Assembly (NCBI GenBank): GCA_028713575.1
Contig: JAQTOB010000004.1
Span: forward strand, 5,250 to 69,249
Reading direction: 5' to 3'
From: Patescibacteria group bacterium
Lineage (GTDB): Bacteria > Patescibacteriota > Patescibacteriia > UBA2591 > UBA6264
Length of the DNA stretch: 64,000 nt
Shown here: in pieces, positions 4,440 through 22,450 of the stretch
How the letters are laid out: each line of letters starts with the position of its first letter
Position numbering within the stretch: the stretch's first letter is position 1
Notes under the pieces: model-generated
What the model saw: only the letters and a program-made list of their open reading frames with translations
What the model was told of the DNA's origin: nothing
Database searches by the model: none
Translations under genes and position numbers: made by a program

Positions 4440-4960
4440 CTTTTGTCAATACCCTGTAAAAATCCACCCATAATAGTACACATCCTGTGCAAGTCCACCC
4501 ATAGTATTACACCTTAGTTTTAACAAACTCATTTACGAGATTATCTACGAGGCGAGACCTCGTAGATCGTAGATTTTGATCATTACATCCTGGGGTCTGA
4601 CCCCATAAACATTCCTTCTAAAACCCTTATCAACAAAGGATTATATGACAAAAATTTCAATTTGGTGTGATTTTGATTAAATTTTTTTATCTACGAGGCG
4701 AGACCTCGTAGGAGGCGTATCTACGAGGCGAGACCTCGTAGATTGTAAATTTTTTATGGGGCTTGGGGTCTGACCCCCTGGGGTCTGGGGTCTGACCCCA
4801 TAAACATTCCTTCTAAAACCCTTATCAACAAAGGATTATATGACAAAAATTTCAATTTGGTGTGATTTTGATTAAATTTTTTTATCTACGAGGTTATCTA
4901 CGAGGCGAGACCTCGTAGATTGTACCTCGTAGATTGTAAATTTTTTAAAGAATGTTAAAA
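4440..4960. repeat. Repeat-rich intergenic region. It holds two copies of the MITE-like element (ggggtctgacccc...tttcaatttggtgtgattttgatt) and four copies of the hairpin tctacgagg-cgaga-cctcgtaga.
   Basis: Direct reading of the sequence. The hairpins are at about 4544-4566, 4689-4711, 4719-4742 and 4898-4920. The element cores begin at 4592 and 4765. Confidence 0.8.
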
Positions 4961-4968
4961 TAAAAAAC

Positions 4969-6471
4969 ATGAACGCGATAAAAGCAAAAAAAGAAAAAAT
5001 ATTTTTTATTATTATTTTGGTTTTAGTTTCTGTTTTTTTTGTATTATTGCCCCGTTTCAGTTACGGCCGGCTGTCAGAAAGCCCTTATAGTTCTTTCTAC
5101 ACCTATCCCCTGCACACCGACGAATGGCAGCATTATACTATTAGCATGTCTTTGGAAGAGAATTTTTTTCACCCCCACGTTTTTTATTATGAGAATTATG
5201 AGCCCTTTATTGACGGCAGTCCCTTTTTTCATGAAATTATTTTTTTTGCCCAAAAGTTGGGTCTTTCTCCAGACAAGTTCTTTGTTTTGCCCATTTTACA
5301 AGGAATTTTTTTTGTTTTGATTTTTTTCTTTTTTTTAAGTTTATTTTTTAACCCTTCAGTTAGTTTTATTGGCAGTTTGTTGGTTTTTTCCCTCCAAAGC
5401 GATGTTAGGATTTTAGGGTTGGTATTTTTTAAGCCCTTTGTTTTGGGTTTTTGTTTTCTTCTCTTGGCCCTTATTATTTTCCAACGGAAAAAAAGAGTTT
5501 CTTTTGCTTTTGTGATTTTCAGCTTGATGTCATTTTTTTGTTATCCGCCCTTAGTTTTGTTATTAATAATTTATGTTTTTGTTTATGGTTTGGTCAACAA
5601 AAAAATTGACAAAAAATATTTATTTTACATTGGTTTTTTGATTGTCCTGGCATTACTCTTCGGCTTAATTATTTTTAAAAATAACGCTTCTTTTTTAATG
5701 GATAAAATAATTTATAAAGGTTATCTTAGCGGTCAAGACAGGACCGCTGTCCCTGAATATTTAAATATCTTTTTAGTTGTTTTAGGGTTGCTAGGATTTT
5801 TAAAGACGATAAAAAAGAAAGAATTTTGGCCTTGCCATAGTTTGTTTATTTTTTTGTTGCTGGATTTTATTTTAGCCACGATTTTTAGATTTAGTTTGGG
5901 TTTTCACTATATGAGGATTATTTATTTTATCGGCATTTTTCTCGGCGTTTATGTTGCTTATATTTTAGTCTATATTTTCAAAAATTTCAGTTTTTTTTCA
6001 AAAAGAAAAACATTGGCCACAGTTTGCCTTTTTTTGATTGTTCTGGCGATTTTGGTTCCTAATTTTAAATTTTATGCCCGGTCCCTTTCCTCCTTTAATC
6101 CGGCTGTTCATGCTCGGTGGTTGGGTCAAAATAATTTGCAGGTTCTGGAATATTTGAAAGAAAGAAACAATAAAGAGGCAAAACTTTTGCATCTGCCTTA
6201 TTTGGGCGCGGTGATTACTCCCTTGACCGGGTTTAAGGCTACGGCCGTATTTTCCGCTTTTACCGGAGGGAAAAAAAATAAATATGACGAGATATTCAAC
6301 TCTCCCAAGGACTGCCAAAAAATAAAAGAAATTATTGACGAAGAGAATTATAATTTATTATGGATGAAACGAAAAATTGATTGCCCTTTTTTAGAGTTAA
6401 TTTTTAACAATAATTTCAATTTTATTTATCAATATAATCCAACAATTTATAATTTGGGGCCTGGGGTCTGA
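4969..6471 (+). CDS. Polytopic membrane protein, possibly a GT-C-fold (ArnT/PMT-like) membrane glycosyltransferase
   Basis: 500 aa with more than 10 predicted TM helices. A DE motif lies in the first extracytoplasmic loop (HTDEW). It is adjacent to the glycosyltransferase cluster. The stop codon lies inside a repeat element. Confidence 0.3.
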   Translation: MNAIKAKKEKIFFIIILVLVSVFFVLLPRFSYGRLSESPYSSFYTYPLHTDEWQHYTISMSLEENFFHPHVFYYENYEPFIDGSPFFHEIIFFAQKLGLSPDKFFVLPILQGIFFVLIFFFFLSLFFNPSVSFIGSLLVFSLQSDVRILGLVFFKPFVLGFCFLLLALIIFQRKKRVSFAFVIFSLMSFFCYPPLVLLLIIYVFVYGLVNKKIDKKYLFYIGFLIVLALLFGLIIFKNNASFLMDKIIYKGYLSGQDRTAVPEYLNIFLVVLGLLGFLKTIKKKEFWPCHSLFIFLLLDFILATIFRFSLGFHYMRIIYFIGIFLGVYVAYILVYIFKNFSFFSKRKTLATVCLFLIVLAILVPNFKFYARSLSSFNPAVHARWLGQNNLQVLEYLKERNNKEAKLLHLPYLGAVITPLTGFKATAVFSAFTGGKKNKYDEIFNSPKDCQKIKEIIDEENYNLLWMKRKIDCPFLELIFNNNFNFIYQYNPTIYNLGPGV

Positions 6472-6605
6472 CCCCCTAAACATCCCTTCTAAAATTGGGT
6501 TGGGGCCTGGGGTCTGACCCCCTAAACATCCCTTCTAAAATTCGCATCAATAAAGGGTTATAGAGCAAAAATTTCAATTTGGTGCGATTTTGATTGATTT
6601 TAATA
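6455..6605. repeat. MITE-like element copy, with two ggggcctggggtctgaccccc heads and one conserved tail tttcaatttggtgcgattttgattgatttt
   Basis: Sequence identity to the elements at 4592, 29248 and 37236-37930. Confidence 0.75.
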
Positions 6606-6787
6606 TCGCAGCAATATTGCAGGCGAAACTTGTAATATTGACACTTAATATGAGTCCAAGATATTGCCCTTTACGATTTTTCCGAATGGTTTTATAATAT
6701 AAACATAAATAATTAATAAAATTTATAGACCCTGTTAGAAATTTTAAGTAAATAGAATTTTTAATCGGGACCAAGAGAACAAAATTT

Positions 6788-7447
6788 ATGGAAAATTCTA
6801 AAGAAATAAAAAAAGCTTGGTTAATCGTCGTTGCCCTGATTTTAATCGTTTTGGTTATTGTTTTTTTTGGTAAAACAAAAACAGCCCCAACTGAAGAAAT
6901 TCTTTCTAATGAGGGCGAGGTTTTAGAACCAGTCGTGGCGGTTACTGAAATAACAGAAACAGAAACAGGTCCTTCTGAAGGAGAACAGGCAATGGAAGGA
7001 CAAAAAGCCCTTGAGTCGGCAAAAACTTTGGCTTTAAATATGAATCAAGTGTCAGCCGAGGGCGTGGTTTTAACCACCAATGGTTTGCCGGCGGACAATT
7101 CTGCCTTGCCTGGCTCATTTGCCGCGCCTTACCAATCGGAAGTTTTAGAGGAAAATGAAATTCCTCGTGGAGCCATAAGATTAAAAATTTCAGTTGATGG
7201 TTTTGAGCCAAAAGAAATTAGCGCCGTCGCGGGAAAAGCCGTGATTATCGCCTTGACTTCAATGGATGAAAATGTTCATATTCTGCGGTTTGAAGACGAA
7301 TCCTTACGAGGAATAAGAATCATTGTTTCTCCGGAAGAAACCCGAGCCATTGTTTTTAATGCGCCGGAAAAAGGGGACTATGCTTTTTATTGTGAAGCGG
7401 AAGGCCATCAGGAGCGCGGCGAAAGCGGCACGATGCGTGTAAAGTAA
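6788..7447 (+). CDS. Membrane-anchored cupredoxin-like (type 1 copper, plastocyanin/azurin fold) protein
   Basis: N-terminal TM helix. The C-terminal domain carries a His in VHILRF followed by FYCEAEGHQERGESGTM (Cys-x3-His...Met), which is a cupredoxin ligand pattern. It is a paralog of 13342-13920. Confidence 0.5.
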   Translation: MENSKEIKKAWLIVVALILIVLVIVFFGKTKTAPTEEILSNEGEVLEPVVAVTEITETETGPSEGEQAMEGQKALESAKTLALNMNQVSAEGVVLTTNGLPADNSALPGSFAAPYQSEVLEENEIPRGAIRLKISVDGFEPKEISAVAGKAVIIALTSMDENVHILRFEDESLRGIRIIVSPEETRAIVFNAPEKGDYAFYCEAEGHQERGESGTMRVK

Positions 7448-7600
7448 ATAAAAAAGCGAAATTTTAGGCTTAGTTTTGCTTTTTTAATTTTTGTTTTAGA
7501 CATTCCACAAAAGTTTTTAATTAACGAAAAGTTTTACGGAGGAAGTCTTAGGAAATTTTACGACCGGAGATATGTTTGGGATTTATAAAATCAAATAAAA

Positions 7601-8710
7601 ATGGAAACAGAAAATAAAAAAATAGCAGTTATTTATACTTCTATGGACAACATCGGCGGCGCTGAAATCGTCGGCTTAACTTTGGCTCGGGAATTAAAGG
7701 CAGATATTTATACCACTAACATTGACGAAGATAAAATTAAAAAAATGGGTTTTACTAATATTAATTTAAAATCCATTGGTCAAGTGCCTATTAACGCCCC
7801 TTTTCGTCATCAAATGATTTTGCAAAAATTTCGTAAACTTAATTTGGGAAATCAATACGATTTTTACATTATTGACGGGGATTGGGCTATATCCGCTGTT
7901 GTCAATAATAAGCCGAATTTATGGTATGTCCATTCACCAATAAGAGAGATATGGGATCTTTATAAATATACGAGAAAAAATATTGTTCCCTTTTATTTTC
8001 GACCAATCTTTGATTTTTGGGTAAAATATAATCGGCAGTTAAACAGAAAATATGCTGAAGACGTGGGAATTTTTGTTTGCAATTCAGAAACTACGCAAAA
8101 AAGACTAAAAAGATACCTGAATAAGAATGCGACGGTGATTAATCCTCCGATTGAAACCGCCGATTTTTATTATCGTCAAAACGGCGATTACTGGCTTTCT
8201 GTCAATCGTTTGATTACCCATAAAAGAGTGGACTTACAGGTTAAGGCCTTTGCCAAATTACCTGAGAAAAAATTAATTATCGTCGGCAGTTATGAAAAGT
8301 CTAAACATTTTCAGGCTTACGCAAATTATATTAAGAAATTGAAAACAAAAAATATCACCATTTTAAGCTGGGTGGATAGGCCGCAACTGATTGACCTCTA
8401 CGCTAATTGTAAAGGATTTATTACCACTTCTAAAGATGAAGATTTTGGTATGACGGCGGTTGAGGCAATGGCCGCGGGAAAGCCGGTTATTGCTTCGGCC
8501 GAAGGCGGTTATAGGGAAACAGTGATTGATAATATTACCGGAAAATTGATTGATAATATTAACGTTGATAAATTAATTGAGGCAATAAAAGAAATAGAAG
8601 AGGGTCCGGAAAAATATAAAGACGCCTGTCTAAAACAAGCAAAAAAATTTGACACCAAGATTTTTATTGGAAAAATAAAAGAGCAGATGAAAAAATACTC
8701 AAAAGAATAA
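7601..8710 (+). CDS. Glycosyltransferase family 4 (GT-B, retaining)
   Basis: The C-terminal motif FGMTAVEAMAAGKPVIASAEGGYRETV is the GT4 EX7E signature region. Confidence 0.8.
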   Translation: METENKKIAVIYTSMDNIGGAEIVGLTLARELKADIYTTNIDEDKIKKMGFTNINLKSIGQVPINAPFRHQMILQKFRKLNLGNQYDFYIIDGDWAISAVVNNKPNLWYVHSPIREIWDLYKYTRKNIVPFYFRPIFDFWVKYNRQLNRKYAEDVGIFVCNSETTQKRLKRYLNKNATVINPPIETADFYYRQNGDYWLSVNRLITHKRVDLQVKAFAKLPEKKLIIVGSYEKSKHFQAYANYIKKLKTKNITILSWVDRPQLIDLYANCKGFITTSKDEDFGMTAVEAMAAGKPVIASAEGGYRETVIDNITGKLIDNINVDKLIEAIKEIEEGPEKYKDACLKQAKKFDTKIFIGKIKEQMKKYSKE

Positions 8711-8731
8711 GAGCGAAAAAAAATAAACAAA

Positions 8732-9586
8732 ATGAGACTTATTGAAAAAAAATTTCCCGGAAATATTAAATTAAAATTTAAAGTTGAGACGACAACCGAT
8801 GAAAAAAGGGTTCTGGAAATGTGGGCAATCAGGGATTATTTTAAAAAAAGATTGGTCATCCAAAATAAAGATATAGTTATTGATATTGGAGCGCATATTG
8901 GAACATTTACTGTTTATGCGGCAAAATTGGCTAAAGAAGGTATGGTCTATTCTTTTGAGCCGCATTCAGAGAACATAAGATTACTAAAAGAAAATTGTGA
9001 ATTAAATAATTTAAAAAATGTTAAATTATTCAGATACGGAGTTTGCGGAAAAAGAAGAAAGGTTAAATTATTTATAGATGAAAATTATACTGGTCGCCAT
9101 AGTCTTTATAAAAAATCCCAAAAGTTTATTTTTATAGAATGTATAACCCTTAAGGAAATTTTTGATGCCAATGAAATTGGACATTGCAATTTTCTTAAGT
9201 TAGATTGTGAGGGAGCGGAATATGATATTTTATTTAATACACCTCAAGATTATTTTGATAAAATAGATAAAATCGTTTTAGAATATCATGATTATCTTCA
9301 TCAAGAAAGAATATGGCCTCAATTAGCGAGATTTCTTCATCAACGGGGATTTAAAATCATAATTGACCCTTACTCGGAAAATCAGGGATTAATTTACGCC
9401 AAAAATATTTGGCGGAAAAAATCAATCGGGTATCATTTGAATTTAGCGGCAAATTTAATAACGGCTAAAAGTAAAATTTTTATTCCCTCCATATTTATAA
9501 AGACAGAAAAAGGCTTTAGTTTTTTGGGGCTTTTTTTGAAAAAATATTTTTCAGGATTGTATTCCGTGTTAAAGAAATTAAAATAG
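8732..9586 (+). CDS. FkbM-family SAM-dependent methyltransferase
   Basis: VIDIGAHIGTFTVYAAKLAKEGMVYSFEP and NCELNNLKNVKLFRYGV match the FkbM domain pattern. Confidence 0.7.
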   Translation: MRLIEKKFPGNIKLKFKVETTTDEKRVLEMWAIRDYFKKRLVIQNKDIVIDIGAHIGTFTVYAAKLAKEGMVYSFEPHSENIRLLKENCELNNLKNVKLFRYGVCGKRRKVKLFIDENYTGRHSLYKKSQKFIFIECITLKEIFDANEIGHCNFLKLDCEGAEYDILFNTPQDYFDKIDKIVLEYHDYLHQERIWPQLARFLHQRGFKIIIDPYSENQGLIYAKNIWRKKSIGYHLNLAANLITAKSKIFIPSIFIKTEKGFSFLGLFLKKYFSGLYSVLKKLK

Positions 9587-9587
9587 A

Positions 9588-10655
9588 ATGGGAAAAGCAA
9601 AGAACAAAAAAAATTTACTTGTAACATTGGCGGACAAAAATTATGTGGAACCGGCCAAACAGCTTTTTTCCAGTGTTTATTGGAATGCCGGATGGCGGGG
9701 CGATTATATGTTACTTGCTCATGAAATCTCCGAAAAAAAATTAGAGTGGTTTAGGAGAAAAGGAATTTTAATTAAGAAGTGTGAACCCCTCTATCGCGGT
9801 AAGGTTGGGGGGTGGAGGCCCGCAACTCACACAAGTAAGTTTTATCTATTTGCCCCTGAGTTTAAGAAATGGGACAATGTGGTGTATTTAGACGGGGATA
9901 TAATTGTAAGAGGCTCCTTGGACGAACTGACAGAAATTAATGGTTTTGGCGCGACACTTGACTTGTGGAATAGCAAATTGTCCGAACAAATTATAAATGT
10001 TAGGCTTATGAAAGAAAGGAGGGTGGATAAAAAAATTTTTATTAATCTTTCAAACGAGCTTATAAAATATTATGATTTAAAAGAAGATGCATTTAATTCA
10101 GGAGTAATGGCTTTTAGCACAGATATAATAAAAAAGGACACTTTTTCAAAATTATATAATATCTTTAAAAAATACGAAAAAATTGGCGTTGGCGGAGACC
10201 AGTTGATATTTAATATATTCTTTTATAAGAATTGGATAAAATTGTCCCCGCTTTATAATATTTGGCCTATTTTTATGAGGAGCATTTTCAATATTGAAGA
10301 TGAAAAAATTAAAGGAATAATACTGCATTTTGTGGGAATATGGCAAAACGATAAACCATGGATTGTAAATAATTATTTTTATAAAGAATGGACAAATAAT
10401 TTGCAAAGAGCCGAATTGATTAATTTCAAAAAAATCCCGCCTCCTTTAAAAAAATGGACTAAACCGGAAATTGAAAAATATTCTTTTTATTTGAAATCCA
10501 AACGCGTATATCTAAAAAAAATATATTTGAAAACCAAAGAGAACATTGAATTTACATATAAGCTTGCGCTCAGACACATTAGTAGATTTATTGGAATTGC
10601 GGGGTTATTCCTAAAAAAGCATTTTCCAAAATTATATTTTAAATTAAAAAAATGA
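9588..10655 (+). CDS. Nucleotide-diphospho-sugar transferase (GT8-like / capsule-LPS glycosyltransferase-like)
   Basis: GT-A-like N-terminal region with a DxD motif (VVYLDGDIIV). Membership of the glycan cluster supports the call. Confidence 0.45.
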   Translation: MGKAKNKKNLLVTLADKNYVEPAKQLFSSVYWNAGWRGDYMLLAHEISEKKLEWFRRKGILIKKCEPLYRGKVGGWRPATHTSKFYLFAPEFKKWDNVVYLDGDIIVRGSLDELTEINGFGATLDLWNSKLSEQIINVRLMKERRVDKKIFINLSNELIKYYDLKEDAFNSGVMAFSTDIIKKDTFSKLYNIFKKYEKIGVGGDQLIFNIFFYKNWIKLSPLYNIWPIFMRSIFNIEDEKIKGIILHFVGIWQNDKPWIVNNYFYKEWTNNLQRAELINFKKIPPPLKKWTKPEIEKYSFYLKSKRVYLKKIYLKTKENIEFTYKLALRHISRFIGIAGLFLKKHFPKLYFKLKK

Positions 10656-11512
10656 AAAATCCTAAAGTTTCCGTTATTATTCCGGTTTATAATCGGGGAG
10701 AAAAATTAAAGGGATGTTTAAAATCTGTTTTAAATCAGACTTATAAAGATTATGAGGTTATTGTCGTTGATAATAATTCCACGGATAACACCAAGGAAAC
10801 AATAAAAGAATTTCAAAAAAAAGACAAAAGGGTGAGATATTTATTTGAACCGAAAAGGGGCGCGGCGGCCGCCAGATATTTAGGCGAAATAAATTCACAA
10901 GGAGAAATAATTTTAATGACTGATTCTGATTGCATTGTTAAGGAAAATTGGGTGGCGGAAATAATTGAACCCATTGTCAAACGCGGCGCCGTGGCGGTAC
11001 AGGGCGTTAAAAGGGCCGCGATTAAGAATTACTGGACTTTACATATGGAAGAGGACGAGAGAAGGAATACGGCGGGAAGAGTCAAAGATAAAAAAATGGG
11101 TTTGTTGGATACGGCAACCTTTGCGATTAAAAAATCCGTTTTGGAAAAAATCGGCCTTACCAACCCCCGGCTTTCAATCGGTCACGACACTGAACTGGAG
11201 GCCAGATTTAAAATTCAAGGGTATGAGATTTTTTTAAAACAAGTTGAAGTATTGCATTATTATGCGGATAATGCAATAAAATTATTTAAAAAAATGTTTA
11301 TTAGGGGCTATTGGAATGCGAGAATTACAAAAACATATGGAGCTTATAAAAAAATTTTTTTCATTCAAAGTAAAATGGAACATTTGCGTTATTTTATAAG
11401 AGTTGGTCTTGAATTATTATATTTACATAAAAATTTTAAGTATGATTTAGTCGCGGGCGTGGGTTGGAGGATAGGATTAGTTTGCGGTTATATATGGAAA
11501 AAAATAAAATAA
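10652..11512 (+). CDS. Glycosyltransferase family 2
   Basis: The N-terminal VSVIIPVYNRGEKLKGCLKSVLNQTYKDYEVIVVDNNSTD is a classic GT2 signature. Its 4-nt overlap with the upstream gene suggests translational coupling. Confidence 0.8.
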   Translation: MKNPKVSVIIPVYNRGEKLKGCLKSVLNQTYKDYEVIVVDNNSTDNTKETIKEFQKKDKRVRYLFEPKRGAAAARYLGEINSQGEIILMTDSDCIVKENWVAEIIEPIVKRGAVAVQGVKRAAIKNYWTLHMEEDERRNTAGRVKDKKMGLLDTATFAIKKSVLEKIGLTNPRLSIGHDTELEARFKIQGYEIFLKQVEVLHYYADNAIKLFKKMFIRGYWNARITKTYGAYKKIFFIQSKMEHLRYFIRVGLELLYLHKNFKYDLVAGVGWRIGLVCGYIWKKIK

Positions 11513-11678
11513 AAATAAATTTCTAAAAAGTGTATTAGAAAAAAAATATACGACAGGTATAAAATTTTTTGTCGTTTTATTCCTAAATAATTTTTCAATT
11601 TATAAAAAGACGCTCCAGCGAAGCGTTTTTTGGTTTATGAAATTTTGTAGGGAATAATATGTGAAAATAGATAAAGAT

Positions 11679-12407
11679 TTAATGTTGTTTTAGGTATTCT
11701 TCAACAACATCTTCAGGGTTCCCCTGTTTGATAATTTTTCCTTTATTAACCCAGATAACCCTGTCACAATATTTTTTAATTATTGGAAGCCTATGGCTTA
11801 CAAGTAAGGCGCTTGCTCCGTTTTTAATCAATTCTTTCACCTTATTGACGCTTTTATGTTTAAATTCTTCATCGCCCATTTCAAAAACTTCGTCTAAAAT
11901 TAAAATATCGGGATTGCAATGAACGGCAATTGAAAAAATGAGCCTTTGTTTCATTCCGTCTGAAAATTGATAAATTTTAGTATTAACAAAATCTTTCAAA
12001 TCAGAGAATTCAATAATGGAATTAATTTTTTCTTTGATTTCTTTTAGGGACAACCCTAAAAGCAGAGAATATAGATATATATTATCTCTTAATGTTAATC
12101 TTTCCTTTAGGCCGTTGTTTAAATTTATTAGAGAAATTATTTTTCCTTGAGTATTGATTCGGCCTTTTTCTTTATCATATATTCCGGCGATAATTCTAAG
12201 CAATGTGCTTTTACCTGAGCCGTTTTTGCCGATAATTCCGACAATTTCTCCGGCGTTAACATAAAAAGAAATATTGTCTAAAACCTGGATATTTTTTTTT
12301 GTTTCTTTTCCGGAAAAAAGCGAAATAAATCTGGCTAAAATTCCCCGGTTTTTTTCAAAACCGATTTTAAATTTTTTTGACAAATTTTCAACAATTATTC
12401 TTTTCAT
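11679..12407 (-). CDS. ABC transporter ATP-binding protein, polysaccharide/teichoic-acid export type (Wzt/TagH/KpsT-like)
   Basis: Walker A is GIIGKNGSGKSTLL, the signature is FSDGMKQRL and Walker B is ILILDEV. Confidence 0.85.
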   Translation of the reverse strand: MKRIIVENLSKKFKIGFEKNRGILARFISLFSGKETKKNIQVLDNISFYVNAGEIVGIIGKNGSGKSTLLRIIAGIYDKEKGRINTQGKIISLINLNNGLKERLTLRDNIYLYSLLLGLSLKEIKEKINSIIEFSDLKDFVNTKIYQFSDGMKQRLIFSIAVHCNPDILILDEVFEMGDEEFKHKSVNKVKELIKNGASALLVSHRLPIIKKYCDRVIWVNKGKIIKQGNPEDVVEEYLKQH

Positions 12408-13228
12408 TAAATTAGTTCTGCGAATTTATACTTTAATTTATTAAAGACACATAAACCGACGATTAAAAACAGTAAACTGTAAAATATTGCCCCTAAAACC
12501 ATCCAGGTTTCAGGGGATTTTGCGTATATCATTAAATCTCGGGCCATAGTGATAAAATAGTAGATAGGATTTAATAAGTTTAGTTTAAATAACCAGCTTT
12601 GATTTTCAATTGTATAGAAAATGGGCGTTCCAAACCAAATTAAAAAAGAAATGAACAGCCATATATTGAATAGGTCAATAAAATAAACGGTTAGGGCCGC
12701 CAAGATAAGAGAGGCGCCGTAAATAAAAAGGCAAAATAAAAAAAGAATTAAAGGGTAAAAAATAATTCCTTGGGTTGAAACATTAAAAATAAAAAGAAGT
12801 ATAACAAAAAGAATTATTTCAAATATATGCGAAAATAAAGTTTTTAAGGTGAGTGAAGCGACCAGGCATTCGCGGGGGAAGTTTATGGATTTAATAAGCC
12901 AACGGTTTTCGTTTATTACTTGGGTGGATTCTATGGTGGTTTGGCGAAAAAAATTAAACATAATTATGCCTAAGAGCAGGTAAAGCGAATAATGTGGAAT
13001 ATTATTGCTGAATTTATTGGCAAAAACGACCAAAAGGACAAGAAATGTTAAGGTCGGATTGAGCAGATACCAAAAAATTCCTAAATAACTTCCTTCGTTT
13101 CTTAATTTAAATTCAGCCTTAGCTAAGGCAAGACTTTTGTTTAGGGTGTTTTTTAACGTAAAGAAAAATTTTTGGGCCTTGTTCGTCACAAATATAGCGT
13201 TAACAAATTTATTTTTTAAATATGCCAA
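12407..13228 (-). CDS. ABC-2 family permease (Wzm/TagG-like)
   Basis: Six TM helices. It overlaps the ATPase gene by 1 nt, which is the typical Wzm-Wzt arrangement. Confidence 0.7.
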   Translation of the reverse strand: MAYLKNKFVNAIFVTNKAQKFFFTLKNTLNKSLALAKAEFKLRNEGSYLGIFWYLLNPTLTFLVLLVVFANKFSNNIPHYSLYLLLGIIMFNFFRQTTIESTQVINENRWLIKSINFPRECLVASLTLKTLFSHIFEIILFVILLFIFNVSTQGIIFYPLILFLFCLFIYGASLILAALTVYFIDLFNIWLFISFLIWFGTPIFYTIENQSWLFKLNLLNPIYYFITMARDLMIYAKSPETWMVLGAIFYSLLFLIVGLCVFNKLKYKFAELI

Positions 13229-13341
13229 AATAAAAGGACTTTGTCAATTTATTTGTCCAGCTTCCCCTTTACGATTTATTTTGTTATTATATAATATATT
13301 AGTGATAATCAATAATTAATAATCATTAATCAGCCAATTTT

Positions 13342-13920
13342 ATGACGCAAAAAAATACTACTCGGATAATCATTGCCGTGATTATCTTGGTTGTTCTCGG
13401 TTTAATTTTATTAACCGCGCCAAAAACTACGCCAAAACCGGAAACAAATTTAGGAGAAGAGCTGGAAACAGATAAAGAAGCAACTTCAATTGAATTGGAA
13501 AGTTTGGTTCCGGGAGCCAGTCCGGTTTCGGAAAAAGGCGAAGTTTTGACAACCGAAGGCAAAGCGACCGACAACGCGGCCATTCCCGGTTCGCCGGACG
13601 CGCCTAAGCAATCTGCTTCTTTAAAAGAGGAAGAAATTCCAGAAGAAGCAGTTAAAATTTCCGTTTCTACCAACGGCTTTACTCCTAATGAATTTAAAGT
13701 TAAAGCCAAAAGCGCGATTACTCTTTCTCTTACTTCCACAGATATGACCCATGTTTTCAAATTTGATGACCCGGTTCTGCAGGCCATTGCCATCGGTGTG
13801 GGAGGTAAGGAAACCCGAGCTATTACTTTCAATGCGCCTTCAGCTGGCGACTACACTTTTTATTGCGATGTGCCTGGTCATCGTGGTCGTGGCGAAACAG
13901 GCGTGATGCATGTTGAATAA
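13342..13920 (+). CDS. Membrane-anchored cupredoxin-like protein (paralog of 6788-7447)
   Basis: N-terminal TM helix. The C-terminal domain has a His in THVFKF followed by FYCDVPGHRGRGETGVMHVE. It aligns with 6788-7447 over the whole C-terminal domain. Confidence 0.5.
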   Translation: MTQKNTTRIIIAVIILVVLGLILLTAPKTTPKPETNLGEELETDKEATSIELESLVPGASPVSEKGEVLTTEGKATDNAAIPGSPDAPKQSASLKEEEIPEEAVKISVSTNGFTPNEFKVKAKSAITLSLTSTDMTHVFKFDDPVLQAIAIGVGGKETRAITFNAPSAGDYTFYCDVPGHRGRGETGVMHVE

Positions 13921-13933
13921 GTATTATTGTTTT

Positions 13934-13988
13934 GAGAACAAAAATATCCCGGATTAACCGGGATATTTTTGTTCTCAGTAATTTTTTA
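13934..13988 (+). terminator. Intrinsic terminator. A perfect 19-bp stem (gagaacaaaaatatcccgg / ccgggatatttttgttctc) with an attaa loop is followed by a T-run. It lies between convergent genes.
   Basis: Inverted repeat read directly, with tttttt at 13983-13988. Confidence 0.7.
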
Positions 13989-15455
13989 CGGACCAATCAA
14001 ATTATTGGCGATTATCTTATAATCTTGATCATAAATAAATATGCTTAAGGCGATACTTTGACATTGCTTTGGTAAAAGAAGACTATCTTCAGTCGTTTTA
14101 TCAAGACAGATTAACGGCTTTTCATTCACCAAAATATCCCGAGAAACAATAACAATTATTTTTTGATTTTTATATTCTTTTTTATCCCGCAGTGATAATT
14201 GATTGTTTTCTTTAGATACCGAAAGTAGATGATTTCTTAATTGATGATAATGAAAATCAAATGATTGTTGAAAGCCGGAAACGATTTTTTGATTATCAGT
14301 AATAAACGCGCTTTCATCATTATTATAATTGGCTAAAAGGCTCCAATTATTAGTGCCAAAAAGCGCAGTTTTCCCGTCTATAATCAGAACATGATGATGA
14401 AGAAAAGAATTAAAAATTTCTTCGCCAATAGAACCTGGTATTTCATCATTAAAATCAAAAGTTCGCCAAACGTCGTCTAAGATTTCAAGATTGTCTATTT
14501 TTTTTCTCCATTTTTCATAAAGAAGCAAGTTAAAAGCGGAATCAGGTTTCCAAAGATTAAAGTCGTCAGTGATGATTTTAATATTTATTCCTTGTTCTGC
14601 TTTTTGCAAAATAGCTTTAGCGATTTTTCTATCCGTGAGTTGCCAAATCATTATTTCTATGTCTTTTTCCGCTTCCTTGATTAAATCAATGATTTTTTCA
14701 TTAAGAGAATTAGTTTTGAATCCCGGACTCCACCAAAGGTCAAAAAAACAATCGTTAAAATTTATTCTTTTTGCCCAGGGCCGATAGCCGTTTTCCCCCA
14801 GTTTTTTGATGCCGCTTAATCCGTTTTTCAATCTAATAAATTCATGATAATAAGTTTTAATAATTTCTTCTTCATTGGTGGTAAAAAGAAAACTGGGGTC
14901 AAATTGTTCCTGCCAGTCTGTCCAATTAAGGGACTCAACAATTAAATTTTGATTATTTGTCCCCTCATCAATAATTAGAAATTTATGATGCATATAGCCG
15001 AGATCGGTATTAGCGTCTATTCTTTTAATACCCGAGGGCAAGTCGTAAAAAACAAGATTATGTTGTTCTTCTTTTTCTTTGTCAAAAATCATGGTTATCT
15101 TTACGCCCCTTTGTTTTGCCCGATAAAGCTCTTCTTTAAAACCTTCTAAATTAAAGGAATACATGGCCAGATCAATGGTTTTTTTTGCATTTTTAATTTT
15201 TTTTATAATAATTTCAGAAAACAAATTGGTCTTGAATTCATTATTGAAATATATTTCGCCTCTAAAGTCGTTTTTTGATTCAACTTCCTGATGAGAAATG
15301 TATTTTGGCAATTTGAAATTAAATAAATTCCAAGCGGTTATTTTTTTAGAAACAAGAACAAGAAAAAAACAAAGAAAGAAAAAAATAATCAAACCAAGGG
15401 TAATAATTTTAAATTTTTTCAACCCCTTTTTGGAATAGAAAATATTTTTTATCAT
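13986..15455 (-). CDS. Membrane-anchored phospholipase D-family protein with two HKD-type motifs (PLD nuclease / cardiolipin-synthase-like fold)
   Basis: N-terminal TM helix. Motif 1 is MHHKFLIIDEGTNNQNLIVESLNW (HxKxxxxD...N). Motif 2 is LHHHVLIIDGKTALFGTNNWS, a variant HxH(x4)D...GTNN. Confidence 0.6.
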   Translation of the reverse strand: MIKNIFYSKKGLKKFKIITLGLIIFFFLCFFLVLVSKKITAWNLFNFKLPKYISHQEVESKNDFRGEIYFNNEFKTNLFSEIIIKKIKNAKKTIDLAMYSFNLEGFKEELYRAKQRGVKITMIFDKEKEEQHNLVFYDLPSGIKRIDANTDLGYMHHKFLIIDEGTNNQNLIVESLNWTDWQEQFDPSFLFTTNEEEIIKTYYHEFIRLKNGLSGIKKLGENGYRPWAKRINFNDCFFDLWWSPGFKTNSLNEKIIDLIKEAEKDIEIMIWQLTDRKIAKAILQKAEQGINIKIITDDFNLWKPDSAFNLLLYEKWRKKIDNLEILDDVWRTFDFNDEIPGSIGEEIFNSFLHHHVLIIDGKTALFGTNNWSLLANYNNDESAFITDNQKIVSGFQQSFDFHYHQLRNHLLSVSKENNQLSLRDKKEYKNQKIIVIVSRDILVNEKPLICLDKTTEDSLLLPKQCQSIALSIFIYDQDYKIIANNLIGP

Positions 15456-17145
15456 ATTTTAATAAAGAATTATCTTGACCGGAAAGAACGATAAAAATTG
15501 ATTCTTTCAGCTGATTGGTTAAAATTTTGAAGACTTTGTTCGTTATTTCGTTATTTAGGTCAGCATAAATAGCGTCCACGATTATTAACAAAGGCTTTTT
15601 TATCAGGCAATAAGCGGCCTGCAAAGAAAAAAGTTCCGTTAAATTCATTTTCATTGATTGAAAATCATGACCCATGAATTTGCTTAATGACATAATAAAA
15701 TTAAATTCTTTAAAGGGAGAAAGTGTTTGAAATGTTTTTTCAACATCTAGGGGCGTAATGTCTTCTTTATTTTTTCCTGTTAAAATTTCACCGATTTTTT
15801 TTTCCGTTGACAAATCGTTTTTGATAAAATAAGCGGGAAAAGAGGCTTGCTGCCAATGTTTGTAAAAAAATCTTTTACCATTGATTTTTACTATCCAGCT
15901 GGAAATATTGAATTGACCTTGACCGGAAAAAATAAGACCTAACTGATTTTTATTTGGATTTTTCCCAAAAATGAGAATTTTTTCACTTTTTTTGAATTCA
16001 AATTTTAGATGATGCGAATATCCGTCTGATTTTATTAATTTTGTTTTTTTTGCATTAAAGGAAATGGTTTGGAAATTTTTGAAATTGATAAATCGGCGCT
16101 TATTGGTTTTAGATTTAGGAACAGAGAGGATTAGCCCCAGCTTGGTAGGCAATGAATAAAATCCGATTTGTAAACTGGTGTAGAGTAAGCGAGTGAGATA
16201 AAAGATAATGATGCCAGAAAGAAATAGATTGCCAATTTCTATTTGCAGAAAAAAAGAAGGAAAATATATTTGCAAAATATAAAATATTCCGGCCAAAAGA
16301 ATTAAAAGAGCGAAAATTACCCGTGGTCCGAAATTGAGCCAAAGATTTCGGCGGATGCGAAAATAAGTGTCAATTTTTACTAAATCATCAAGTTTTTTCA
16401 AGCTTTTTTCTTCCAAGCGATGGCTTTGAATAAAGGGCAATTCATAAAGGTCGGTTACAATATTTTTGATTATTTCCGAATACAAAGTGGTTTCCTTGGT
16501 AATGTAGTTTTTTGCAATGAAATAGCCAATAACTCCAATGGCGATGTTTATAGGAATGAAGGCAAGAACAATGATTAAAAGTTTTGTGTTATAGAAAAAA
16601 GTGATGGAGATTAGTCCTAAAATATAAAGAATCCAACGCATTGAACCAATAAGGCTTTTTTCAACCCCCATTTGTAGCAAAGGAAGATGATATGATATTT
16701 TGGCAATTAAAGAGGCCTTGTTTTGACTTTTTGTTTTGAAAAAGGGACGATGCAGGAAGATTTTAAACCAACCCCTTCTCAAATCGTTTAATAAATAAAC
16801 AATTAGGGTTTTTTCTATTTTTAAACCAATAAAAGAACAAACAAGATAAATCATTACTCCGGCGGAGAGAATAAAAAAAACGATTGGCATTTTTTTGCGG
16901 ATTAAAAGAGCGCTGAATTGGGAAATAAAACTGTGGCTAAACAAAGACAAAATAACTTCTAAAATAACCAGAAAGAAAATAAGCAAAATCATGATTTTTA
17001 CTTCTTTTTTGTGTTTTTTTATAAAACGCAAAAGGTATTGGAAATGAAAATTTTCCAATTTCAGTTGATGGATGTTTTTTTTAATTTTTTCCCTTTGTTG
17101 ATACAAAGAGATCTGATAGTTTTTTTCTTCCATGATGGACCTCAA
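15409..17145 (-). CDS. ABC-exporter-like membrane protein (N-terminal 6-TM domain plus C-terminal NBD-like domain) with all catalytic motifs degenerate (pseudo-ATPase)
   Basis: The TMD carries an ABC_membrane-like LLNDLRRGWFKIFL region. In the NBD-like part the Walker A position reads ILIFGKNPNKNQL (no GxxGxGKS/T). The signature position reads FSLQAAY instead of LSGGQ. The Walker B position reads LLIIVDAIYADLN, so the catalytic E is replaced by A. Confidence 0.55.
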   Translation of the reverse strand: MRSIMEEKNYQISLYQQREKIKKNIHQLKLENFHFQYLLRFIKKHKKEVKIMILLIFFLVILEVILSLFSHSFISQFSALLIRKKMPIVFFILSAGVMIYLVCSFIGLKIEKTLIVYLLNDLRRGWFKIFLHRPFFKTKSQNKASLIAKISYHLPLLQMGVEKSLIGSMRWILYILGLISITFFYNTKLLIIVLAFIPINIAIGVIGYFIAKNYITKETTLYSEIIKNIVTDLYELPFIQSHRLEEKSLKKLDDLVKIDTYFRIRRNLWLNFGPRVIFALLILLAGIFYILQIYFPSFFLQIEIGNLFLSGIIIFYLTRLLYTSLQIGFYSLPTKLGLILSVPKSKTNKRRFINFKNFQTISFNAKKTKLIKSDGYSHHLKFEFKKSEKILIFGKNPNKNQLGLIFSGQGQFNISSWIVKINGKRFFYKHWQQASFPAYFIKNDLSTEKKIGEILTGKNKEDITPLDVEKTFQTLSPFKEFNFIMSLSKFMGHDFQSMKMNLTELFSLQAAYCLIKKPLLIIVDAIYADLNNEITNKVFKILTNQLKESIFIVLSGQDNSLLKYDKKYFLFQKGVEKI

Positions 17146-18319
17146 GATAATATTTATATAAAGAAGGGATTTTAATATTTTTCAAATCCTTTTTTAGTTT
17201 TTTTTGTAATCGGGGAGAATAAGAACCGTAAAAATATTTAGTAATGATGCGGAAAAAAGTTTCAGACAAATTTTTAATTTGTTGTTCGTCATTAACTAAG
17301 ATTTTTTGGCTGATAATTTGCAATAATTGGTTATTTAAAGAATTCTCTTTTTTATAAAGAAGTTGGGAAAAATGTTTCATTTTATTTTTTGGCTTAAAAG
17401 AAAGAAGTGACGTCCGCCAATAACTTATGGTTTTTTTAACAAATGAGTCCTCTAAACTAATTAAACGGTCATGGAAACAATAGCCTAAAAAATTAAATTT
17501 TTCTTTTCCATTTATCAATCTGGTTTTTTCTTTTTTAATTTCTAATTTTAATTCTTTAAGGTGTTGATATAAATATTTTTCAATTTCTTTAAGTTTTTTT
17601 AGACTTGGGTCAAAGGCGATTAAATCGTCGCCGATGCGACGATAAAGGCAAATTTTTGGCCCCAAGTATTTGTCTAGGTCGTCCAAATAAAGATTAGTAA
17701 AAAGGGCGATTAAAGGCACGCCTTGAATAACGCCGATTTTTGGCTGATAAATTTTTTTATCCTTATAAACCGCATTTTTAATGAAAAGTTTAAGGATTTC
17801 CATCAGCGGTTTTTCAGAAATAGTTTTTTCAAGTTTGGTTATTAAAATATCTTGGTCAATGTAATCGGAATAATTTTTAAGGTCGGCAATCAGAATAAAA
17901 TCTTTATCATAATAACGTTGATAGCGTCGCGCCACGCTACGACTGGCGTAAAAACTGCTATGAGAAGAACGATAAGAGAATAGATAAGGCGAATAAAGAT
18001 TTTCAAAAATTGGCTCTAAAACCCGATAAATAGCTTGAGCTTTAATTCGGGCTCTAACTGAATAAACATATATGTCTCTTAAAGAACCGTCTTTTTTTGG
18101 AATGTAATGGCAAATAGCTGGCGCCAAAGGAGTAATTTCAATTAATTCTTTCCTCGCTTTTTGGCAGAATTCTTCTGCCTGAGATTTAACGTCGTTTAGG
18201 CCAAGTCCTTCAATGCCGACGTATCTTGCCGTTAAGGATTTTTGGTCAAATTTTTTAGCCAAATCCAAATAGGCCTGCCGAATGTTTTTAATGTCAATTA
18301 TTTTTTCAAAAAGTTTCAT
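17081..18319 (-). CDS. Reverse transcriptase (group II intron / retron-like RT motifs 0-7 plus a roughly 130-aa C-terminal extension) with an unusual IGDD motif C
   Basis: Motif 0 is RYVGIEGLG and motif 1 is IPKKDGSLRDI. Motif 2 is SVRARIKAQAIYRVLEPIFE and motif 3 is FSYRSSHSSFYA. Motif 4 is ILIADLKNYSDYID and motif 5 is GVIQGVPLIALFTNLYLDDLD. Motif C is LYRRIGDDLIAF and motif 7 is LKLEIKKEKTRLIN...FNFLGYCF. The gene overlaps the downstream gene by 65 nt. Confidence 0.8.
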   Translation of the reverse strand: MKLFEKIIDIKNIRQAYLDLAKKFDQKSLTARYVGIEGLGLNDVKSQAEEFCQKARKELIEITPLAPAICHYIPKKDGSLRDIYVYSVRARIKAQAIYRVLEPIFENLYSPYLFSYRSSHSSFYASRSVARRYQRYYDKDFILIADLKNYSDYIDQDILITKLEKTISEKPLMEILKLFIKNAVYKDKKIYQPKIGVIQGVPLIALFTNLYLDDLDKYLGPKICLYRRIGDDLIAFDPSLKKLKEIEKYLYQHLKELKLEIKKEKTRLINGKEKFNFLGYCFHDRLISLEDSFVKKTISYWRTSLLSFKPKNKMKHFSQLLYKKENSLNNQLLQIISQKILVNDEQQIKNLSETFFRIITKYFYGSYSPRLQKKLKKDLKNIKIPSLYKYYLEVHHGRKKLSDLFVSTKGKN

Positions 18320-18369: not shown

Positions 18370-18727
18370 ACCATAACATGGCAATGCCCAACGGCGAGCC
18401 ATTAATCAAGTCAAATTGAGATAACAGTGCTAAATAGGTTTTTTTTATTTTTTTTATTATTTCACTTGCTGTTTTGGTATTAGGCGGTTTTATAACAACA
18501 AGCCGGATAATTTTTAATACCCCTTATTTAAAGAGTGGTTATGGTTTTAATTTAATTGAAATTTTTATTTGAACAGCAATTATTGGAAATTTCCATTCAA
18601 CTACATTTTAACACGGATTTTAAAAAATTGATATGCTTGTCTTGTGGAAAAGTTTTTAAATTAATTGAAGTTTTTAATTGTTATTTTCCCCTTTTTATAC
18701 TATAATAAAAGTATTATTATTGGTTTT

Positions 18728-21700: not shown

Positions 21701-22450
21701 TATTTAACTATCGGACACCATGAACAATTTGATTTGGGCGAAGATGATAAAATGACTATTGAAGCTTGGGTTTATTTAAATGCCGCGCCGACTAATTATC
21801 AGATGATTTTAAGCAAGGGCTATAATCCGGGCTATGAATTTAGAATCAATACTGGTCGTTATGCGCAATTTTTAAATGTGGCAACCGGCTATAGTTCTTA
21901 TGTTCTTACTTCCACTAATGCTTTGTCTTTAAATGAATGGTATCATTTGGCCGTGACTAAAAGTAATATGACTGGTGAAACAAAAATTTATATCAATGGC
22001 GTTTTGGATAAAACCGGATTTTTAGATACTTTTGATTATAGTAATGAAAATGAAATAAGAATCGGCCGTGATGCTGATGACGGATGCGCCAACGGCAATG
22101 CCTATTTTAAGGGTTATTTGGACAATTTGGCCGTTTATAACGCGATTAAAGACGAAGAACAAATGAGAATTGATTACGAAGCAGGCAATTGCGGTGCTGA
22201 TAATTGCCGAATAAGTGAAGTTTGCAATCTTTGTCATGTTCAGGGCGTTGACGACGGAATTTGCGGCAGAATATCAAGCGATGCCAGTGTTTGTTGTTGT
22301 TCCTTTACTGATTCGCGCATTGTTCCTTTTGTTGATTATCACTATGTTTTTACTGTCACCAGCGGACAAGGCGAATCAACACCCGGTCCGGAACCGCCCT
22401 TAACCAGTCAAACGATTTGTTTTCCGCCAACAGAAGAAGAAGAAAATTAA
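18728..22450 (+). CDS. Large membrane-anchored surface protein with multiple LamG-like (concanavalin A-like lectin/glucanase) domains and FN3-like segments
   Basis: An N-terminal TM helix follows MSLFSKF. The block AHWKMNE...NGNHG...A..DG.DDY... ...EAWV... recurs three times and is LamG_3-like. The ORF track starts at 18665, but the later ATG at 18728 immediately precedes the TM helix. Confidence 0.6.
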   Translation: MSLFSKFNFKNFLIVTGSFFLLFILILTGIFLFNRKMNIQAAETHKLRGWGWSENVGWISMNCFNDFDNDGVFENCCPGGTECTSENTPYTQCCPYDLSADYGVNYDTISKELSGYAWAENIGWICFGKTCDGATPDGNNAWACVGNGSCLNGVCSCVGDQGEDFLDTDKACTESNHLKAHWKMNDIVNGKIIDETTVNGGTLMPAVAPPALTKGKFENALKFDGIEDYVEMADSPNLSMTGNLTIEAWVKRNEVGGEQTIVAKWDESQNKKSYRLWFSSDNRLNFTVSNNTNLATAQQKNGICVGSNRKQCYNGLETNEQSCSFHADCPIGYYCHEKLCDNDSNCDQDLHEICQNAPITDIKKWHHVVGKYVADIPGTDVDEKALLLFIDGSPAFVNITGTIPNALIDDSQNFYIGAKKGTTVMNTYFKGNIDNVSVWSCQNLGKILGRHKKEIWNDAKMEVDGWAKIVSLNDGGWLKLQGLTRDSRVWGSYLNNYNTFYTFSGYMANRYVKEPTNSSGLMAYWKMNEPFWNDSINEVIDSSINNNHGTAKNGAKIINNGALHNAGDFDGENDCLLIPDSPTLDIANSITLSIWILNEGPGSGNESSSKGMIISKNYAGNNGVYNLHLNYYTSGNKIEFEVYDLNDTRHYLESTTVVEDKKWYHVVAIYDYGSGKAKIYINGEKEENEGTWGGYNLKTTSLATSIGCSTSADNTPLKMFFSGLIDDVMIYNRVLSETEIKAIYNSSIPFCAGWEDHEHEYSGPPAPLDFDNLSLDNTLLCGQMSLQWESSDWAESYTYERCDNVSETECASCSYVEKSVLDDSCELTGCYLVDNDLIPNTGYCYKVQAHNETGSTYNSEGPVWKSTLFCAPTFGVIDNSVCGQLSLQWESIEEADGNNIYRSLTNNGCYDVYSPTCELIGHVAEGMNYYVNNDELKDLIAHWKMNESSWSGATDEVNDSSGNGNHGVASTGTTTTGNGKFDYAGVFDGNDYLTIGHHEQFDLGEDDKMTIEAWVYLNAAPTNYQMILSKGYNPGYEFRINTGRYAQFLNVATGYSSYVLTSTNALSLNEWYHLAVTKSNMTGETKIYINGVLDKTGFLDTFDYSNENEIRIGRDADDGCANGNAYFKGYLDNLAVYNAIKDEEQMRIDYEAGNCGADNCRISEVCNLCHVQGVDDGICGRISSDASVCCCSFTDSRIVPFVDYHYVFTVTSGQGESTPGPEPPLTSQTICFPPTEEEEN

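Follow-up and report, generated by a model that had tools for sequence, protein, structure and literature searches.

We analysed a 64,000-nucleotide stretch of a Patescibacteria group bacterium genome (assembly GCA_028713575.1, contig JAQTOB010000004.1, positions 5,250 to 69,249 of the forward strand), hereafter the window, in which two genes for membrane-anchored cupredoxin-like proteins, here called CupA and CupB, flank six genes for glycan synthesis and export. The best explanation, to which we assign a probability of about 0.6, is that CupA and CupB are long-separated paralogues with a Cys/His2/Glu single-metal site, and that the pair was split by an inserted glycan block. The gene arrangement as such is ordinary, and for annotation purposes the cup-glycan-cup bracket is to be taken as an insertion artefact in a variable cell-surface island that says little about function. 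What deserves a specialist's notice is a Glu that is invariant at the axial position of the metal site among intact members of a very large, uncharacterised cupredoxin family of the Candidate Phyla Radiation (CPR, or Patescibacteria).

The CupA and CupB domains and their putative metal site

6788-7447, plus strand: CupA, 219 amino acids, membrane-anchored cupredoxin
13342-13920, plus strand: CupB, 192 amino acids, paralogue of CupA

Both genes were recovered at these coordinates by an open reading frame (ORF) check. Their products are paralogues sharing 47% identity over 139 amino acids (BLASTP, E 3e-44), and both exceed the Pfam gathering cutoff of 27 bits for Cupredoxin_1 (PF13473), with 36.6 bits for CupA and 36.4 for CupB. 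Each protein starts with a single strongly hydrophobic transmembrane (TM) helix (residues 4-27 in CupA and 3-25 in CupB, the hydrophobic helices being placed at 10-28 and 9-27), followed by a linker (~28-80 and ~26-54) made up of 23-24% Glu, 15-17% Thr and up to 10% Pro, a conserved N-terminal extension of the domain of about 45 residues (~81-128 and ~55-102) and the cupredoxin domain itself (~129-219 and ~103-192). The original prediction, made from the DNA letters without database searches, had ascribed to both proteins a TM anchor, a linker rich in Thr, Glu and Pro and a C-terminal cupredoxin domain. This shared architecture is confirmed, with one correction: the Glu/Thr/Pro-rich stretch is present, but some 45 of the residues counted as linker form the conserved extension. 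The latter carries the motif PG-SPV...G-V-T..G..V-N-A-PGSP-AP-QS, is modelled against the domain with a predicted local distance difference test (pLDDT) score of 96-98.

Structure models were produced with AlphaFold2 from a 90-sequence alignment and compared with the PDB by Foldseek. Their pLDDT reaches 89.6 for CupB and 85.7 for CupA, and both comprise the TM helix, ~20-50 disordered residues and a C-terminal portion of ~140 residues at pLDDT 89-98. Foldseek returned cupredoxins only, with a probability of 1.0 for both models; besides Cupredoxin_1 proteins of Bacillus anthracis, the matches include auracyanins (6kol among them), amicyanin and the CuA domains of N2O reductase and ba3 oxidase. 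Structure prediction, which had been proposed as a check, thus yielded a confidently modelled cupredoxin fold, and the outcome that was to refute the original prediction, absence of such a fold, did not occur. The B. anthracis proteins (4hcf, 4hcg and 4hci) are the best structural match, with a target TM-score of 0.81-0.88 and an rmsd of 1.6-2.6 Å, and belong to the same PF13473; they are nevertheless just 21-24% identical to CupA and CupB, the likeness being one of fold and Pfam family. CupA and CupB are anchored, probably extracytoplasmic cupredoxin-fold proteins.

A word-indexed search retrieved 161 relatives, several of them already called 'cupredoxin domain-containing protein' (NCBI) or 'plastocyanin', with Patescibacteria, Parcubacteria, Jorgensenbacteria, Brennerbacteria and Paceibacterota as named sources. 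Grouped at 50% identity, the relatives from an exhaustive profile search form 313 clusters at E<=1e-30, a figure that rises to 762 at E<=1e-10. In a collection of species-representative genomes, 141 stretches code for a relative of the query; 79 of them, mostly from Patescibacteria metagenome-assembled genomes (MAGs), were kept as loci of ±10 kb, and their ORFs were clustered. Copies identical to the window proteins occur in several metagenome assemblies and in MAG GCA_028711035.1, with the same gene order throughout. Studies of CPR bacteria, moreover, note that each of their bins with NirK also has a cupredoxin, which they take to be the electron donor to NirK (PMC5581439, PMC12931201). The view that blue-copper proteins are unexpected in so minimal an organism does not survive these numbers, names and publications: the presence of cupredoxins in Patescibacteria is neither rare nor new.

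The metal site itself departs from the ligand set first proposed, His...Cys-x3-4-His...Met. Read literally, the pattern His...Cys-x4-His...Met is there, its Met being M189 in CupB and M216 in CupA, but the axial slot holds an invariant Glu and the Met is probably a core residue. The site residues are H137, C175, H180 and E185 in CupB and H164, C202, H207 and E212 in CupA. In HMMER alignments, the family-typical loop motif of CupB, CDVPGHRGRGETGVMHV (Cys loop CDVPGH), and the divergent loop of CupA, CEAEGHQERGESGTMRV (CEAEGH), match without gaps the CTYPAHYAGGMKGVMTV segment of Roseiflexus auracyanin 6kol. CupB likewise aligns gapless with the N-terminal cupredoxin of the three-domain NirK (6tfd, CSLPGHRQAGMQGVLQV, and also 2dv6), the residue-by-residue alignment of CupA being to 6kol only. 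These solved proteins share the ligand pattern Cys-x4-His-x4-Met, whose final position corresponds to E212 in CupA and E185 in CupB, and it is a Met or Leu in the middle of their last strand that pairs with M216 and M189. DSSP assignments on the CupB model place C175 at the end of a strand, H180 in a loop, E185 just before the last strand (186-191) and M189 in mid-strand, four residues past E185 and eight after the loop His. By standard beta-strand geometry, four residues of extended strand would span ~13 Å of backbone, which would leave the M189 side chain too far from the metal.

Covariation across 221 distinct aligned family sequences points the same way. Glu occupies the axial slot in all 182 members with His/Cys/His and in none of the 39 without the full set, and the same linkage is seen for an Arg two residues before the Glu and an Asp after the Cys. 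The downstream Met position behaves differently: 179 of the 182 intact members have M there and the other 3 have I, while degenerate ones have L, M, I, F or V; M189 and M216 thus probably act as core residues rather than ligands, since aliphatic residues replace them when the site is degenerate. One cluster representative from the exhaustive search (P0131) reads CDVPGHASQGMTGSM, with Met in the Glu slot, and therefore the Glu and axial Met positions are equivalent.

Set against the known copper sites, the His, Cys and His positions (H137/C175/H180 and H164/C202/H207) align with the equatorial ligands of type 1 centres and are nearly invariant, but the slot in which type 1 proteins carry their axial ligand, a Met or Gln located 2-4 residues past the loop His, is filled by Glu in each of the 182. 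CuA domains (N2O reductase, cytochrome oxidase subunit II) share the fold and gave the best profile-to-sequence matches (E 1e-8); CuA, however, needs two Cys (C-x3-C, within C-x3-C-x3-H-x2-M), whereas the loops CDVPGH and CEAEGH contain one, and the site is therefore mononuclear. Nitrosocyanin and the axial-Gln cupredoxins (stellacyanin, auracyanin D) resemble the predicted CupA/CupB site in that an oxygen or amide ligand replaces a classical one, which gives them low potentials, ~ +85 mV for nitrosocyanin. In nitrosocyanin, though, the axial ligand is a His and it is the N-terminal His that has given way to Glu (PMC10804444), while CupA and CupB keep the upstream His and place Glu in the Met slot. 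Engineered azurin M121E has this very arrangement, with an axial Glu in the Met slot.

Auracyanins and plastocyanins of type 1 are close counterparts in other respects: they too are membrane-tethered or periplasmic single cupredoxin domains, and between 6kol and the window proteins the N-terminal His and the Cys-x4-His loop align gapless with identical loop lengths (Foldseek probability 1.0). CupA and CupB differ from auracyanin in the invariant Glu in place of the axial Met, in the Arg-Gly before this Glu and the Asp after the Cys, in the additional conserved 45-residue extension and in having no known ACIII, cytochrome or photosystem partner. The N-terminal cupredoxin of Hyphomicrobium NirK (HdNIR, 2dv6/6tfd) has a loop nearly identical to that of CupB, yet CupB is free-standing and anchored, not fused to a nitrite reductase, and has Glu where HdNIR has Met. 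Profile scores separate the two window proteins from the established families as well. CupB passes Copper-bind PF00127 (23.7 bits against a gathering score of 21.2) and CupA fails it (15.0); both fall far below the NCBIfam cutoffs for plastocyanin (TIGR02656, 20-23 bits against 87.85) and azurin (TIGR02695, 17 against 105); for CopI (NF051440), CupB scores 16.1 bits against a cutoff of 280 and CupA has no match. From alignment and covariation, the CupA/CupB site is predicted to be Cys/His2/Glu.

The glycan block and the history of the gene layout

4969-6471, plus strand: Mem500, 500 amino acids, ~9-10 TM segments; GC 32%
7601-8710, plus strand: GT4 glycosyltransferase (Glycos_transf_1, E 5e-34); GC 34%
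8732-9586, plus strand: FkbM-family methyltransferase (TIGR01444, 103.8 bits against a cutoff of 37.7); GC 29%
9588-10655, plus strand: GT8 glycosyltransferase (PF01501, E 5e-20); GC 32%
10652-11512, plus strand: GT2 glycosyltransferase (PF00535, E 1e-37); GC 35%
11679-12407, minus strand: ABC ATPase of the Wzt/TagH type, 242 amino acids (PF00005, E 1e-27); GC 30%
12407-13228, minus strand: ABC-2 permease of the Wzm/TagG type (PF01061, E 1e-13); GC 31%

Pfam and NCBIfam searches confirmed the six-gene module announced between the cup genes (GT4, FkbM, GT8, GT2, ABC ATPase and ABC-2 permease), the first four genes converging with the ATPase and permease genes. The best NCBIfam matches are TagH and galactan Wzt for the ATPase and galactan Wzm for the permease, all below their equivalog cutoffs. 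As in Wzm/Wzt export of O-antigen or galactan and TagGH export of teichoic acid, an ABC-2 permease and its adjacent cognate ATPase stand beside glycosyltransferases (GTs) of families 2, 4 and 8 and a methyltransferase. Unlike in those systems, the nucleotide-binding domain takes up residues 5-238 of the 242 of the ATPase, leaving out the C-terminal glycan-binding domain of Wzt; the block has no initiating transferase; and an orphan gene, Mem500, is present. None of the ORFs in 4969-15455 matched an initiating polyprenyl-phosphate glycosyl-phosphate transferase of the WecA, WbaP or TagO type in Pfam or NCBIfam, and such an enzyme may be encoded elsewhere in the genome. As judged from these matches, the six genes plausibly form an ABC-transporter-dependent, Wzm/Wzt- or TagGH-like set for polymer assembly and export.

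Mem500, which lies outside the region of the original prediction, matched nothing in Pfam, NCBIfam or the PDB sequences and has just nine homologues. In loci L095 and L097 these homologues overlap the end of a cluster encoding a GT2/GT4 fusion, Wzt and Wzm, and by such gene context Mem500 probably belongs to the glycan system. CupA therefore sits within the glycan block rather than bracketing it. The cup genes do flank the six genes, but the bracket is specific to this lineage, and once Mem500 is counted the glycan block encloses CupA itself.

How the layout arose can be read from the relatives. Locus L013 has a CupA orthologue (5214-5852; 69-77% identity and the same unusual CE-EGH loop), a 117-amino-acid ORF and a CupB orthologue (6424-7017; 65%). 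Locus L092 has CupA (692-1351; 68-71%), a 150-amino-acid ORF and CupB (1918-2499; 68%), followed by a convergent PLD gene 67% identical to that of the window. The small ORFs separating the orthologues in these relatives encode coiled coils of 117-150 amino acids and are homologous, with tandem (V/I)DKRF(x)E repeats, as is one in locus L094:

L013, 6025-6378: small coiled-coil ORF
L092, 1398-1850: small coiled-coil ORF
L094, 1389-1763: small coiled-coil ORF

No remnant of this ORF was found in the window by tblastn. The original prediction had left open whether the glycan module inserted into a tandem pair or the pair was duplicated around it, and had suggested comparing synteny in relatives. 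In L013 and L092 the orthologues are separated by the small coiled-coil ORF and nothing else; the duplication therefore predates these lineages, the pair was originally adjacent and the glycan genes were inserted. Insertion into a pre-existing pair is the option that stands, and duplication around the module was rejected, both relatives having distinct CupA and CupB orthologues.

The backbone of the closest relatives (L014-L022) consists of a FlgD_ig/Por-tail protein gene on the minus strand, one or more cupredoxin genes, a gene for a LamG protein of ~1250 amino acids and LigA; the CupA orthologue of L093 has the FlgD_ig gene as its immediate upstream neighbour. The GC content is 0.43-0.44 in the cup genes, 0.39 in the LamG and FlgD_ig genes, 0.29-0.35 in the glycan genes and ~0.30-0.32 in Mem500 and the PLD, ABC-like, reverse transcriptase and IS200 genes. 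In L020 a TnpB gene lies between two cupredoxin genes, and the cup locus seems prone to insertion.

Transcription signals were also compared:

6669-6698, plus strand: promoter-like site CTTTACG-N17-TATAAT, 90 nt upstream of CupA
13267-13295, plus strand: promoter-like site CTTTACG-N16-TATAAT, 47 nt upstream of CupB
13933-13977, no strand assigned: perfect 20-bp inverted repeat with a 5-nt loop and a T-run, between the convergent CupB and PLD genes

Just two copies of the motif CTTTACG-N16/17-TATAAT are present in the window, where 0.02 would be expected by chance. L013, L092 and L093 have a single copy each, always ahead of the CupA orthologue and with the surrounding ~50 nt aligning; in L013 and L092 none precedes the CupB orthologue. 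The hairpin at 13933-13977 is likely, to judge by its sequence, a bidirectional terminator that would make CupB monocistronic. An ancestral CupA-ORF-CupB unit may thus have had one promoter, CupB using its own CupA-type copy and its own terminator after the split. Between CupA and the GT4 gene no terminator-like site was predicted, and read-through into the glycan genes would be possible.

Comparison with the relatives indicates that the ancestral order was FlgD_ig protein (minus strand), CupA, small coiled-coil ORF, CupB, LamG protein and LigA, with one promoter before CupA, and that low-GC accessory blocks dropped into this backbone in the present lineage. Mem500 landed upstream of CupA, next to the FlgD_ig gene; the six glycan genes took the position of the small ORF and so parted CupA from CupB; a trio of reverse transcriptase, ABC-like and PLD genes came to lie between CupB and the LamG gene, and an IS200-like gene before LigA. 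The trio may predate this lineage, because the PLD gene already adjoins CupB in L092. The layout is then a by-product of genome flux and not of operon design.

Possible functions and rival explanations

In the proposed mechanism, the N-terminal helix and flexible acidic linker would tether each protein to the outside of the cell membrane, and its domain would bind a single metal ion, in all likelihood copper. With a carboxylate where blue copper has a thioether, the centre would be of lower potential, 'green/red'-like and more stabilising for Cu(II); the lower potential is expected by analogy with auracyanin D (+90 mV), azurin M121E and nitrosocyanin. Such a centre could serve in one-electron transfer or in copper handling at the cell surface, and the conserved 45-residue extension, kept even in metal-less relatives, would probably dock the domain to a partner.

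A stronger claim, that the Patescibacteria cupredoxins including CupA and CupB have a natural Cys/His2/Glu copper site and form a second natural carboxylate-ligated class after nitrosocyanin, is a possibility we put forward tentatively and with more doubt than belief. A 2024 paper on AcoP names nitrosocyanin as the only natural red cupredoxin, lists as axial ligands Met and, in auracyanin D (+90 mV), Gln, and reports that in AcoP M171A an acetate carboxylate acts as axial ligand and turns the site red (PMC10804444). No description of a natural axial-Glu cupredoxin was found in the open-access literature, itself weak evidence of absence, and the literature retrieved on azurin M121E was double-mutant work only. 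The Glu-type site is a probable new variant, not an established novelty. Were the claim true, it would provide a wild-type counterpart of the engineered axial-Glu azurin, 'red/green' and of low potential, present in hundreds of lineages of ultra-small bacteria without respiratory chains, often arrayed with metal-less copies and giant surface proteins, and thus a candidate surface interface for redox or metal exchange between epibionts and their hosts or minerals. Proteins treated in papers as plastocyanin-like NirK donors in fact carry a strictly conserved Glu for the axial Met; if this Glu ligates copper, their potential and reactivity would be far from those of blue copper and the electron-transport schemes drawn for Patescibacteria would need revisiting. 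The soluble domain is small (~140 residues) and readily expressed, which makes the Glu-site question directly testable.

The original prediction and the CPR literature would instead make these proteins classical blue-copper (His/Cys/His/Met) carriers to NirK or another terminal enzyme. The cupredoxins reported from all NirK-bearing CPR bins and proposed as donors (PMC5581439, PMC12931201), speak for this, as do the near-invariance of Met189 and the PF00127 score of CupB (23.7 against 21.2 bits). We nonetheless judge it very unlikely: the Met slot (Cys-x4-His-x4) is Glu in the 182 intact members; Met189 lies eight residues past the His in mid-strand and is kept or becomes aliphatic when the site is lost; both proteins fall far short of the plastocyanin and azurin cutoffs; and the Cys is lost in many family members, which is odd for a dedicated electron carrier. 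Partners are lacking too. Pfam annotation of the ~40 ORFs of the window revealed no NirK, multicopper oxidase, cytochrome, oxidase subunit II, Nqo or NDH-2, and no redox enzyme was found among the recurrent neighbour clusters of the 79 loci. The large cupredoxin-containing ORFs of related loci included no NirK or multicopper oxidase, all being surface proteins with Lamin-tail, PKD or beta-helix domains. The minimal respiratory or redox chain suggested in the original prediction hence found no counterpart in the window or among these recurrent neighbours.

Membrane-tethered modules for buffering, delivery or resistance of Cu or Zn, or plain structural or docking beta-sandwiches, are an unlikely alternative that nevertheless has several observations on its side. 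Analogues proposed for it are Streptococcus pneumoniae CupA, a TM-anchored cupredoxin-fold Cu(I) chaperone (not the CupA named here), and proteobacterial CopI. In 4hcf/4hcg, the nearest match in structure, the bound metal is Cu or Zn, there is a weak match to CopI, 42 of 142 representatives lack an intact motif while the Cys-less ones keep fold and extension, giant surface proteins of the Lamin-tail-domain kind carry fused cupredoxin domains, and CopA copper pumps are common in Patescibacteria (PMC8672522). Yet the window contains no copA, copZ or csoR gene, the CopI match lies far below threshold (16 bits against 280), and His/Cys/His with a Cys-x4-His spacing is of the electron-transfer type, not of the Cys/Met-rich chaperone type. 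Quite unlikely, in our estimate, is a functional tie to the neighbouring genes, in which the cupredoxins would act with the glycan machinery, for example through glycosylation of their Glu/Thr-rich linkers via Mem500 and the exported glycan, or through domains that bind or act on the polymer. CupA does lie between Mem500 and the GT4 gene with no predicted terminator before the latter, the cup pair of L013 is immediately preceded by three GT genes, L016 and L018 likewise have GT genes upstream, and in six loci a Cys-x3-Cys-Pro cupredoxin-fold paralogue abuts GT2/GT4, Wzt and Wzm genes. The paralogues in those six loci, however, come from another subfamily, which has no His and lacks the His/Cys/His/Glu site; L013 and L092, the nearest relatives to carry both cup genes, have no glycan gene between them; and genes for surface proteins and glycans generally cluster in variable envelope islands. 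The cupredoxin-glycan tie is a weak lead.

Several observations weigh against the explanation we prefer, that of anchored Cys/His2/Glu paralogues split by an insertion. A His2/Cys/Glu set would suit Zn too, and crystals of the B. anthracis Cupredoxin_1 protein, nearest in structure, were grown both with Cu and with Zn; copper is the putative metal. With no redox partner found, electron transfer is assumed from the fold. Five ORF clusters of GT, Wzt and Wzm type lie at most four genes from a cupredoxin-fold gene in 12 of the 79 loci and farther away in two, which favours a glycan role, although 67 loci have no such neighbour and the count overstates the number of independent events, the loci being phylogenetically related. 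The borders of the module show no target-site duplications, inverted terminal repeats or element ends, the only long direct repeat being the paralogue homology 7337-7450/13810-13923 (70%). Amino-acid composition, and not foreign origin, may account for part of the low GC content in the inserted blocks. The layout also requires either that Mem500 and the six genes inserted separately or that a single insertion was followed or preceded by a rearrangement.

A plain electron-carrier role is complicated by the wider contexts of the family, with its giant-protein neighbours, clustered extra paralogues, Lamin-tail fusions and many Cys-less members. The motif is broken in 42 of the 142 newly retrieved cluster representatives, many of which have lost the Cys, and Cys-less members keep the fold and the extension motif. 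L036 9406-9987, L072 263-844, P0101 and P0108 are tandem partners of intact cupredoxins in which the site has been lost as a whole (upstream His to Tyr, Cys to Ser, loss of the Arg, Glu to Leu) with the fold motifs and extension retained; on their sequences, they are predicted metal-less paralogues under selection. Family domains are also fused C-terminally to Lamin-tail-domain surface proteins of 500-2100 amino acids, and two to five tandem cupredoxin domains may occur in one polypeptide. Examples of fusions or tandem domains are:

L088, 5720-10279
L068, 7168-12153
L036, 15521-16978
cluster representatives P0121, P0122, P0134, P0142 and P0154

The commonest context, seen in 33 loci (within L024-L068; for example L047 3339-10627 and L026 4902-13455), is a giant surface protein, a cupredoxin, a TM protein of ~510 amino acids and another giant protein, to which two Cupredoxin_1 paralogues with C-x3-C-P or C-x2-C-GGP replacing the Cys/His loop are often added. 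The giant proteins are repeat-rich and 300-2500 amino acids long; neither they (cluster c1) nor the ~510-amino-acid protein (cluster c2) have a Pfam match or a homologue in the window, and the added paralogues are likewise missing from it.

Other features of the window

Downstream of CupB, 13986-18319 on the minus strand holds three overlapping genes arranged like an operon:

minus strand: reverse transcriptase, 412 amino acids (PADLOC RT and DRT/UG26-like, E 5e-35)
minus strand: ABC_membrane-like protein, 578 amino acids
minus strand: TM-anchored double PLD/NucT/DrmC-like protein, 489 amino acids

In L077 and L081 the same trio, at 38-42% identity, adjoins a pair of cupredoxin genes, and in L092 CupB is followed by the PLD gene. 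The trio does not resemble a group II intron and could be a module for defence or a retroelement. Next to the reverse transcriptase gene, 18665-22450 encodes a 1261-amino-acid protein with four Laminin_G_3 domains and 43% identity to its counterpart in L022, a conserved downstream neighbour of cupredoxin genes in close relatives.

The palindrome GGGGTCTGACCCC occurs in twelve copies against 0.02 expected, in intergenic clusters (4592-4799, 6463-6521, 29255 and 37262-37799) that include an exact 43-nt tandem duplicate (6454-6496/6500-6542) overlapping the Mem500 stop codon. Another palindrome, ATCTACGAGGCGAGACCTCGTAGAT, recurs at 4540-4930. Both are elements flanking Mem500 that resemble repetitive extragenic palindromes. 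Two IS200/Y1-transposase-like genes are present, and one of this kind also precedes the Mem500 homologues in L095 and L097:

22714-23412: IS200/Y1-transposase-like gene
59273-60028: IS200/Y1-transposase-like gene

Many contigs with this Patescibacteria-type gene cluster (L013, L015, L017 and L021, for example) are deposited under names like 'uncultured Gammaproteobacteria bacterium', 'Woesearchaeota archaeon' or 'Candidatus Saccharibacteria', probably as a result of mislabelled or mis-binned MAGs. The remaining genes of the window are typical of Patescibacteria, with type IV pilus genes, Lgt, LigA, GatA, Fpg, QueH and giant surface proteins, and 101-2866 encodes a 921-amino-acid protein with a HINT/pretoxin domain.

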